Assembly: GCA_964388545.1 (NCBI GenBank)
Contig: CAYMAV010000001.1
Span: 6,272-70,271 of the forward strand
Reading direction: 5' to 3'
Source of the DNA: an uncultured Clostridium sp.
GTDB lineage: Bacteria > Bacillota_I > Bacilli_A > RF39 > UBA660
Length of the DNA stretch: 64,000 nt
Part shown: piece by piece, positions 39,652 to 40,359 of the stretch
How positions within the stretch are numbered: position 1 is the stretch's first letter
Layout: every line of letters starts with the position of its first letter
Program-made: the position numbers and the translations under genes
The notes under the pieces: generated by a model
Database searches by the model: none
Told to the model about the DNA's origin: nothing
The model's input: only the letters and a program-made list of their open reading frames with translations

Positions 39652-40359
39652 TCAATTGTTTGATTTTAGACTTTCTACTATTGTCATGATATATTGCCGA
39701 TTACTAGGCTTACCCTTATTTTGACATACACTATAACCAAAAAGTTTATCCATAATATCAAAATTTCCCCTATTCCAACTAACCTCTATCGCATGTCTAA
39801 TATTTTTTTCAATACATATCTTATTTGTTGAAAAGTTCTCCGCAATATTGGAATACAAATCGCCAAAAAGGTAGTGATCATTTTTATATAACTCTGCAAT
39901 AGACTTTTTCAGATATAGATATCCCTTTAGATGAGAAGGAATACCTAGGTCGTGTAAGATGTTTTTAATTTTATCTTCTATATTGATATTTTTAATTATA
40001 GAATCTCCTTTTATTAAATCCTCTATTACTTTTGGTTCCGTTGGTTTTATTAAAATACTATCTACCTCAACAGTATCTAATCTCTCAATTATCTTCTTTG
40101 ATATATATGAGGTGTTTACTATTACTTTTTTTGATTTAATATTTTTGTTTATTTCTTTAATTATCGAAATACTATCCACATTGGATAATATTAAATCTAA
40201 AATTACTATTTGATAATCATCGTTTTCTCTTACATAATTTATAGCTTCTTCTCCACTAGAAAAGCTTATAATTTCAATAAGACTATGATTACAAAAATAC
40301 TTTTTATAACTATTGATTAAATCTATATCATAATCAATTAAAAGTATTTTATTCTTCAT
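39652..40359 (-). CDS. Spo0A-like response regulator (receiver domain plus Spo0A_C DNA-binding domain), unusually short
   Basis: C-terminus [21 protein letters not shown]...[26 protein letters not shown]...GKPSNRQYI closely matches the Spo0A C-domain (HIKGYLYLREAI...ERAIRHAIEVAWSRGN...LFGYTV). The N-terminal receiver has D in ILDL, T in VNTSY and K in ILIKP. Confidence 0.7.
   Translation of the reverse strand: [235 protein letters not shown]

Follow-up and report, generated by a model that had tools for sequence, protein, structure and literature searches.

A short-linker Spo0A-family gene in the glycolytic region of an uncultured Bacilli genome, a probable positional ortholog with a shifted acid pocket

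Is a short Spo0A-like gene found among glycolytic genes the spo0A of its lineage, or a second and degenerate copy of a master regulator encoded elsewhere? The question is raised by an open reading frame (39652..40359 of the minus strand, with an ATG start and 235 amino acids [aa], from the list of open reading frames) in a 64,000-nucleotide stretch of contig CAYMAV010000001.1 (GenBank assembly GCA_964388545.1, uncultured Clostridium sp.). This whole stretch, hereafter the window, has a G+C content of 27%. With a probability of roughly 60%, we read the gene as a positional spo0A ortholog, controlled through phosphorylation of Asp55, with a shifted acid pocket and probably shifted DNA targets, and not as a paralog. 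We call it a positional ortholog because the same slot holds the only Spo0A-type gene seen in each related contig fetched, a gene that is of equivalog grade in less diverged relatives. The lineage consists of uncultured Bacilli of ~27 to 31% G+C related to the Mycoplasma/Acholeplasma/RF39/RFN20 group.

The reading frame is a genuine Spo0A-family gene. Its product matches the full Pfam profile of Spo0A_C (PF08769; profile positions 1-104 of 104, residues 131-231, 102.9 bits against a cutoff of 25, E=1.2e-29) as well as Response_reg (PF00072; residues 5-116, 44.8 bits against a cutoff of 30.2, E=1.6e-11), and among PDB structures its sequence matches the Spo0A C-domains 1lq1 (E=1.4e-27) and 1fc3 (E=2.6e-26). 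The AlphaFold model, for which a 26-sequence alignment served as input, has a mean predicted local distance difference test score (pLDDT) of 87.2, with linker residues 120-124 as the sole stretch below 50. Its C-domain superposes on 1lq1/1fc3 with template modeling (TM) scores of 0.82 to 0.89 and root mean square deviations (rmsd) of 1.4 to 2.1 A (Foldseek; TM 0.89 and rmsd 1.5 A for 1lq1_C), and its N-domain superposes on ordinary receiver (REC) domains. A preliminary description of the window, made from its letters, had assigned the C terminus to the Spo0A DNA-binding domain, and profile, structure match and fold all bear this out. The same description noted a length of 235 aa and a truncated linker, which is also what we find: the linker has ~8 residues versus ~27 in Bacillus subtilis Spo0A (a gap of ~20 to 45 alignment columns against canonical Spo0A) and makes up nearly all of the length deficit, together with a deletion of 3 to 4 residues before the helix-turn-helix. 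Every string quoted in that description is present in the translation, GKPSNRQYI among them. An identical protein is present on Logan metagenome contigs.

A search of 5.8 billion proteins returned 88 hits, including 1 identical protein, three clusters at 54 to 58% identity (239 to 242 aa) and a large set at 35 to 41% identity (246 to 265 aa); classical long-linker Spo0A proteins (276 to 283 aa) are ~30% identical to the window protein. The lineage is essentially unannotated, since almost none of these hits come from NCBI or carry a name. In every relative contig fetched, the glycolytic slot gap-pgk-(tpiA)-[spo0A]-(gpmI)-S10 holds a short Spo0A (27 to 59% identity). The order pgk-(flippase-GT4)-tpiA-[Spo0A-like]-(AAA_14)-...-gpmI is identical in the three close clusters (54 to 59% identity), and other metagenomic clades have gap-pgk-(GT4-tpiA)-spo0A-(AAA_14)-(gpmI) followed by the S10 operon. 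Two GTDB metagenome-assembled genomes (MAGs) labeled uncultured Bacilli (CALWAM01/CALVJF01; 36 to 38% identity), the sole returns of a scan of GTDB representative genomes (a set without the window genome) with subclade-specific peptide patterns, have the order whiA-clpP-PRK-gap-pgk-tpiA-spo0A-gpmI. The classical spoIVB-spo0A neighborhood is absent throughout the lineage fetched, and the earlier remark that the gene lies in an atypical place for Spo0A, away from spoIVB/recN, stands. Short length (246 to 256 aa) and glycolytic-cluster location are traits of the lineage and not quirks of the window gene; in an ancestor of the lineage, a short-linker spo0A seems to have come to lie within the gap-pgk-tpiA-gpmI region.

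In a simple neighbor-joining tree, one long branch nested in the short-linker lineage holds the window protein together with the three relatives closest to it. This subclade collapses to a single representative in a library clustered at 50% identity and is therefore small. With the Spo0A equivalog model TIGR02875 (cutoff 200 bits), the syntenic relatives score 277.8 (L006), 263.5 (P0058), 238.5 (P0024), 237.1 (P0006) and 209.4 (P0011), and the scores under the cutoff are 138.5 for the window protein, 138.9 to 168.1 for subclade members P0003 to P0005 and 160.9 for P0074. Shared synteny and nesting in the clade argue for orthology to accepted Spo0A. Some of the related loci differ in detail: tpiA is missing between pgk and spo0A in three clades (L011 3220-5205, L012 4847-6845 and L016 6503-10753), whose pgk products are short (370 to 379 aa).

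By every proxy available, the Spo0A-like gene appears to be still functional. Because synonymous sites are saturated at 55 to 60% protein identity, constraint was gauged against neighboring genes: the Spo0A-like protein is 57 to 60% identical between subclade genomes, with TpiA at 55%, TruA at 61 to 65% and EcfA at 64 to 67%. The two domains are equally conserved within the subclade (REC 57%, C-domain 61%), and 16 positions are invariant over 26 family members; among these positions are the phospho-acceptor Asp, both residues of the Lys-Pro pair and the central part of the recognition helix.

Residue numbers are those of B. subtilis Spo0A; the agreement of the numbered sequence with the 1lq1 chain covers its C-terminal 112 residues. 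D55, T83 and K105 of the window protein align with D56, T86 and K108 of B. subtilis, in agreement with the preliminary description, which had listed the phospho-acceptor Asp, the Thr and the Lys as kept. It had also noticed a Tyr in the acid pocket, and the alignment puts this residue, Tyr10, where B. subtilis has D11, its second pocket Asp. The acidic pair D10-D11 of B. subtilis is thus broken in the window protein, which has D9-Y10 with an Asp at the next position; D9 is kept, the pocket reads D9-Y10-D11, and the subclade change is D11 to Tyr plus N12 to Asp (DDN to DYD). Throughout the four-member subclade D9, Y10, D11, D55, T83, K105 and P106 are invariant. Elsewhere the receiver has departed further from the canonical form: the aromatic switch residue is replaced in the subclade (F105 to Ile; window Ile102), Pro60 is gone in three of its four members (P60 to S in the window), and REC identity to B. 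subtilis is 19% for the window protein versus 36% for the syntenic relative L006.

Few receiver residues are as well conserved as the second pocket Asp, and its change in the subclade has the look of a shifted register more than of decay. Ten members of the family alignment have no acid at position 11, and 9 of these 10 have Asp at position 12; of the 73 others, none does. A wider sample, the top 150 representatives (P0089-P0236), which is biased in that the query profile came from the subclade, gives 19 of 44 versus 10 of 67 (Fisher p=0.0017, uncorrected for phylogeny). This same biased sample contains 111 Spo0A-family representatives with an intact phospho-acceptor Asp, of which 44 have a non-acidic second pocket position, and several further representatives are without the acceptor itself. 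Degenerate receivers seem common in the Spo0A family, and the novelty of the pocket change is lowered because pockets without the second acid are common among representatives. Near the top of the representative search there are also proteins made of Spo0A_C alone (P0089-P0092, P0097, P0104 and P0120; 2 to 4 tandem domains, no receiver), and a MAG (GCA_964608075.1; L020 6001-8922) carries two tandem-Spo0A_C genes (454 and 462 aa) side by side, ~4 kb from bofA.

With respect to the DNA-binding domain, identity to B. subtilis is 41% for the window protein versus 58% for L006, and G227, F236 and V240, in the region that contacts sigma-A, are retained. The recognition helix (positions 210-218) has changed from SRVERAIRH to ICIEKNIRH (window I181-H189), with R211C, R214K and A215N; Lys at position 214 is found in only 6 of the 133 family representatives sampled. 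The residues E213, R214 and R217 of Spo0A are base contacts, through which the helix would read the 0A box. Further along, the C-terminal motif KPTNSEFI has become KPSNRQYI in the subclade, with A257 to Val (window V228) and D258 to Glu. In B. subtilis, A257V abolishes spoIIA/spoIIG activation and keeps abrB repression, although Paenibacillus still sporulates with it (PMC9195935). The subclade changes, judged from the alignments, would touch residues that are important in model organisms for metal binding, the phosphorylation-coupled switch, 0A-box reading and transcription activation.

Exact TTCGACA boxes (on the coding strand) lie upstream of spo0A in the relatives L006, L010/L011, L012, L015 and L016 (200 bp scanned; chance expectation ~0.02 per 200 bp), 75 to 125 bp ahead of the start codon; they share one orientation and, where there is more than one, stand in tandem at ~10-bp spacing. 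L010 297-333 / L011 4358-4394 holds three exact boxes and one near-match (TACGACA), L012 5988-6005 holds two exact boxes, and L006 (6491), L015 and L016 hold one exact box each; L007 has only near-matches. The box in L015 stands in a DSD-type relative that still has the canonical recognition helix. Clostridioides difficile Spo0A contacts G2, C4 and G5 of TGTCGAA, and it binds upstream of spo0A with the highest affinity among the targets tested (PMC3485338); the boxes of the relatives have the arrangement that would be expected for Spo0A autoregulation. The preliminary description had suggested looking for 0A boxes in the flanks of the window gene. There are none within 200 bp upstream of it, nor upstream of its subclade counterparts in L002, L005 and L013, and the whole window holds 5 TGTCGAA boxes versus 5.25 expected, that is, chance level. 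Visual comparison of the regions upstream of the four subclade genes gave no new operator motif common to them, as they share only the -10 region and the terminator tail (TTTTTTTGTAAA, present except in L013). Because the recognition helix has changed and the relatives' upstream tandem boxes are gone, we lean slightly towards DNA targets that have moved away from the canonical TGTCGAA regulon.

From family knowledge and the conserved residues, we infer how the ortholog might work. It would be transcribed from its own promoter, behind the tpiA terminator, and its receiver would take up phosphate on Asp55, probably straight from an orphan histidine kinase, the route of clostridia and Turicibacter. 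Asp11 would stand in functionally for the pocket Asp that has become Tyr10. Phosphorylation would then release or dimerize the Spo0A_C domain, which would bind DNA via its helix-turn-helix and contact RNA polymerase sigma-A via the conserved GN-x-D...FGYSV surface. In clostridia, Spo0A is phosphorylated directly. Turicibacter is without the phosphorelay, and direct Spo0A phosphorylation has been proposed for Turicibacter sanguinis (PMC13492147).

Several observations weigh against this account. The second pocket Asp, the aromatic switch and Pro60 are all lost, and receiver phosphorylation may be absent; the 64-kb window holds no recognizable histidine kinase. A paralog could also have taken over the slot from the original spo0A and would leave the same positional signal, and the presence of a second spo0A and of a sporulation gene set is judged from 64 kb only. 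As for changed specificity, the equivalents of E213 and R217 are kept and R214K is conservative. The absence of boxes is weak evidence for it, because L008, of the P0058 clade, combines a canonical helix with no exact upstream box. To this we add an exact TGTCGAA in the last 30 to 40 nt of the Spo0A-like gene in two subclade members, L002 and L005 (L002 10696-10702, L003 9632, L004 1418, L005 1210-1216). It is spelled by the codons ATT GTC GAA (Ile-Val-Glu), GTC accounting for 3 of 264 Val codons in neighboring window genes, and it lies 27 (L002) and 17 (L005) nt upstream of the AAA_14 -35 hexamer, distances one helical turn apart. The box is absent in the window (ATA GTA GAA) and in L013, and it may be a coincidence or a remnant operator.

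A bolder version of the ortholog account is that spo0A, kept in its glycolytic slot in a Mycoplasma-related lineage, has been rewired to run a non-sporulation regulon after sporulation loss or during it. It would combine a new helix specificity (CxEKN for RVERA), lost 0A-box autoregulation, the shifted pocket and an 'activation-defective' Val257 state; we hold it as a tentative proposal whose odds are well under even. If true, it would be a natural example of a sporulation master switch after sporulation is gone.

The rival that survives best takes the gene as the same ortholog, now phosphorylation independent, in a lineage without sporulation, with the receiver as a dimerization or regulatory module and a regulon unrelated to spores. 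The changes in the receiver (no second pocket Asp, no Pro60, no aromatic switch) would fit it, as would the low REC identity, Val at the A257V position and the missing upstream 0A boxes. The 64-kb window has no recognizable sporulation-specific gene, and mfd is not followed by spoVT. The literature gives it further room: for RF39, the RFN20 families CAG-631 and CAG-449, ML615J-28 and Anaeroplasmataceae, where spo0A is reported by KEGG orthology (KO) annotation, sporulation has been inferred to be lost many times in the orders concerned (PMC10868615), while spo0A, which is necessary and not sufficient for sporulation, is kept in 40 of 102 non-spore-formers (bioRxiv 10.1101/2022.02.25.481979). 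However, D9, D55, T83 and K105 are invariant at 55 to 60% identity, which would be unexpected if phosphoryl chemistry had been abandoned, and the change of N12 to D looks compensatory. The effect of A257V is context dependent, as Paenibacillus still sporulates (PMC9195935), and 64 kb is a small sample of a genome. On these grounds we regard this rival as rather unlikely.

The paralog proposed by the preliminary description, an orphan regulator beside a full-length master Spo0A elsewhere in the genome, fares worse. It draws on the score under the equivalog cutoff, on the degenerate pocket, switch residue and recognition helix, on the degenerate pockets of many metagenomic Spo0A-family representatives and on the spo0A paralogs known from some Clostridia, the Galperin survey having two copies in 10 of 118 Spo0A-positive genomes and three in one (bioRxiv 10.1101/2022.02.25.481979). 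Yet all paralog cases in that survey are Clostridiales and none are Bacilli or Erysipelotrichia. The slot is identical to that of equivalog-grade spo0A in related genomes, where the less diverged relatives also have 0A boxes and where it holds the sole Spo0A-type gene seen in every related contig fetched, and a graded series leads from canonical to degenerate forms. Searches of the 64-kb window for another Spo0A_C or receiver domain came up empty, as did those of the fetched relative loci (contigs of 1.3 to 21 kb) for another Spo0A_C. One reading frame of the same length in the window (7591-8298) was tried as a paralog and rejected (BLASTP E=0.36). A second copy is therefore improbable as an explanation of this gene. 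A decaying relic, functionless, open by chance and on its way to loss, could explain the long branch, the lost canonical residues and the low equivalog score, but it is largely refuted and barely credible given an intact reading frame with a good Shine-Dalgarno sequence in four genomes at 55 to 60% identity, conservation like that of TpiA, TruA and EcfA, a confident structure prediction for both domains and the 16 positions invariant over 26 family members.

Returning to the positional ortholog, its surroundings suggest how it is expressed. The minus-strand order is argS - pgk - flippase-like - GT4 (family 4 glycosyltransferase) - tpiA - Spo0A-like - AAA_14 - two genes without family assignment - gpmI, continuing beyond gpmI with ecf ABC ATPase - truA - gatCAB (Table 1). 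The gene had been described as embedded between tpiA and gpmI, of which the first part is accurate, tpiA being adjacent, and the second is not, since AAA_14 and the two unassigned genes intervene before gpmI. Membership in a glycolytic operon was also implied; instead, the gene looks like its own transcription unit because of the hairpin after tpiA, the promoter-like site and ribosome-binding site in the spacer and a separate promoter-like site for AAA_14. The hairpin has 13 bp, and hairpins of different sequence stand in the same place in L002, L005 and L013 (-8 to -12 kcal/mol). It was found by folding and was missed by a generic terminator scan, being too A+T-rich for the G-C rule of that scan; the sites of the generic promoter/terminator scan were no more frequent than in shuffled sequence. 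The -10 region of the promoter candidate of the Spo0A-like gene is conserved in the four subclade loci. The AAA_14 site TTGACT-17-TATAAT is the top-scoring site of an 11-kb scan, and its hexamers are kept in the window, L002, L005 and L013.

Table 1. Features of the Spo0A-like locus, in window coordinates
Feature	Coordinates	Strand	Basis
Spo0A-like response regulator, coding sequence	39652..40359	-	List of open reading frames; Pfam Response_reg + Spo0A_C; TIGR02875 138.5 bits (cutoff 200)
Receiver (REC) domain, residues 5-116	40012..40347	-	Pfam PF00072; mapping onto B. subtilis Spo0A
Short interdomain linker, residues ~117-130	39970..40011	-	Alignment gap; low pLDDT
Spo0A_C DNA-binding/transactivation domain, residues 131-231	39667..39969	-	PF08769; 1lq1/1fc3; residue mapping
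Shine-Dalgarno sequence AGAAAGGAA of the Spo0A-like gene	40363-40371	-	Sequence
Promoter-like TTGTTA-16-TATTAT with TG, in the 89-bp spacer	40378..40405	-	Consensus scan; inferred
Terminator-like hairpin and U-run over the tpiA stop codon	40437..40470	-	Fold -10.1 kcal/mol, z=-3.9
tpiA, directly upstream	40449..41153	-	Pfam TIM, 231.9 bits
pgk, start of the local glycolytic group	43385..44566	-	Pfam PGK on the identical Logan gene
AAA_14 promoter-like TTGACT-17-TATAAT over the Spo0A-like stop codon	39627..39655	-	11/12 matches
AAA_14/DUF4143 ATPase, directly downstream; probable ATG 39594, 424 aa	38320..39603	-	Pfam
Two overlapping genes, 386 and 407 aa, between AAA_14 and gpmI	37150-38310, 35949-37172	-	No Pfam/NCBIfam family
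gpmI, cofactor-independent phosphoglycerate mutase, four genes downstream	34430..35956	-	Metalloenzyme + iPGM_N; identical Logan gene

AAA_14 is the most conserved gene of the neighborhood (80 to 81% identity between subclade genomes; ArgS, Pgk, GpmI and TpiA, 55 to 77%), and the pair Spo0A-then-AAA_14 is shared by the subclade with a distant clade, P0058 (L008/L009). The two unassigned genes are 50 to 66% identical within the subclade; the one at 35949-37172 has only a weak Peptidase_C39_2 match and is duplicated in L013 (two 413-aa copies). Between pgk and tpiA (window 41104-43382, minus strand) lie a glycosyltransferase and a flippase-like membrane protein, with a 50-nt overlap with tpiA. 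The best match of the GT4 protein is the Acholeplasma-type alpha-monoglucosyl-diacylglycerol synthase Mgs (295 bits, under the cutoff of 400), and the insertion of both genes is also found in L002, L014 and L016, with GT4 alone in L008.

Further away, an origin-proximal set occupies window 54332-64000 on the minus strand (pth-mfd-orf206-mnmE-mnmG-rsmG-noc-soj-spo0J), with mfd crossing the right window end; its full length on L017 is 1102 aa. A spoVT gene after mfd was considered and rejected, as extension to the right of the window gave pth-mfd-orf206-mnmE, with an unassigned reading frame of 206 aa in its place. The only signaling protein in the window besides the Spo0A-like gene product is a 684-aa protein (24856-26910, minus strand) with a C-terminal GGDEF diguanylate cyclase domain and N-terminal 500 residues without assignment. 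A surface-polysaccharide cluster (14900-24573, minus strand), with tRNA genes on both flanks, encodes an Alg14/Alg13-like pair, GT2 and GT4 glycosyltransferases, an O-antigen-ligase-like protein, a pyruvyl transferase, a flippase and an FrhB-like Fe-S protein. At the left end (1-6580, minus strand), a single open frame of >2,200 codons continues beyond the window; its product starts with a signal- or transmembrane-like segment, is rich in Asn, Tyr and Thr and is probably a giant surface protein.

The window organism probably belongs to one of the orders named above, judging from the class Bacilli in the MAG titles, the low G+C and the match to an Acholeplasma-type glycolipid synthase. That spo0A occurs in such lineages is already known; we found no description of its glycolytic-cluster position, of the short linker or of a strongly derived subclade that the curated model misses. 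Sporulation prediction for uncultured Firmicutes takes as its first test whether a genome has spo0A (PMC10868615; bioRxiv 10.1101/2022.02.25.481979). Because the subclade gene falls under the curated Spo0A threshold, automated pipelines may call subclade genomes spo0A negative, or they may take what could be a rewired regulator for a sign of sporulation. A spo0A in the gap-pgk-tpiA-gpmI region is a useful lineage marker, and the spoIVB-spo0A neighborhood is not universal. The lineage also offers a graded series, from a DD pocket with canonical helix and boxes, through a DSD pocket with helix and boxes kept, to a DYD pocket with an altered helix and no boxes, as natural variants with which to separate the residues for phosphorylation, 0A-box reading and activation.

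Compared with the Spo0A of B. subtilis and Geobacillus stearothermophilus (1LQ1, 1FC3), the window protein has the same REC + Spo0A_C architecture, the phospho-acceptor Asp, Thr and Lys and a C-domain of the same fold that is 40 to 41% identical, with the equivalents of E213, R217, F236 and G227 kept; it differs from that of B. subtilis in length (235 versus 267 aa) and in the absence of the spoIVB/recN neighborhood. In C. difficile Spo0A all DNA-contact residues are present, and the protein binds upstream of its own gene (PMC3485338), whereas in the window the helix is altered and the boxes are absent. The expected likeness to control of the clostridial type is direct Spo0A phosphorylation; no Spo0F/Spo0B-like single-domain receiver was found in the window. 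Like atypical (phosphorylation-independent) response regulators, which have substitutions at one or more of the five canonical receiver positions and retain the fold and output domain, the window protein has lost a receiver residue; unlike them, it replaces the second pocket Asp only, with the acceptor Asp, Thr and Lys invariant and an Asp one position later. Its closest counterparts are the short-linker Spo0A proteins of related low-GC Bacilli (CALWAM01/CALVJF01, P0058, P0006 and P0024), which occupy the same slot at 35 to 41% identity, share the short linker and, in some clades, the downstream AAA_14 gene, and form the tree clade in which the window protein is nested. These relatives differ in that they pass the equivalog cutoff (except P0074, 160.9 bits) and keep SRVERAIRH/TRVERSIRH, A257/D258 and the aromatic switch, and most of them have a DD pocket and upstream 0A boxes, whereas the window subclade has none of these traits.

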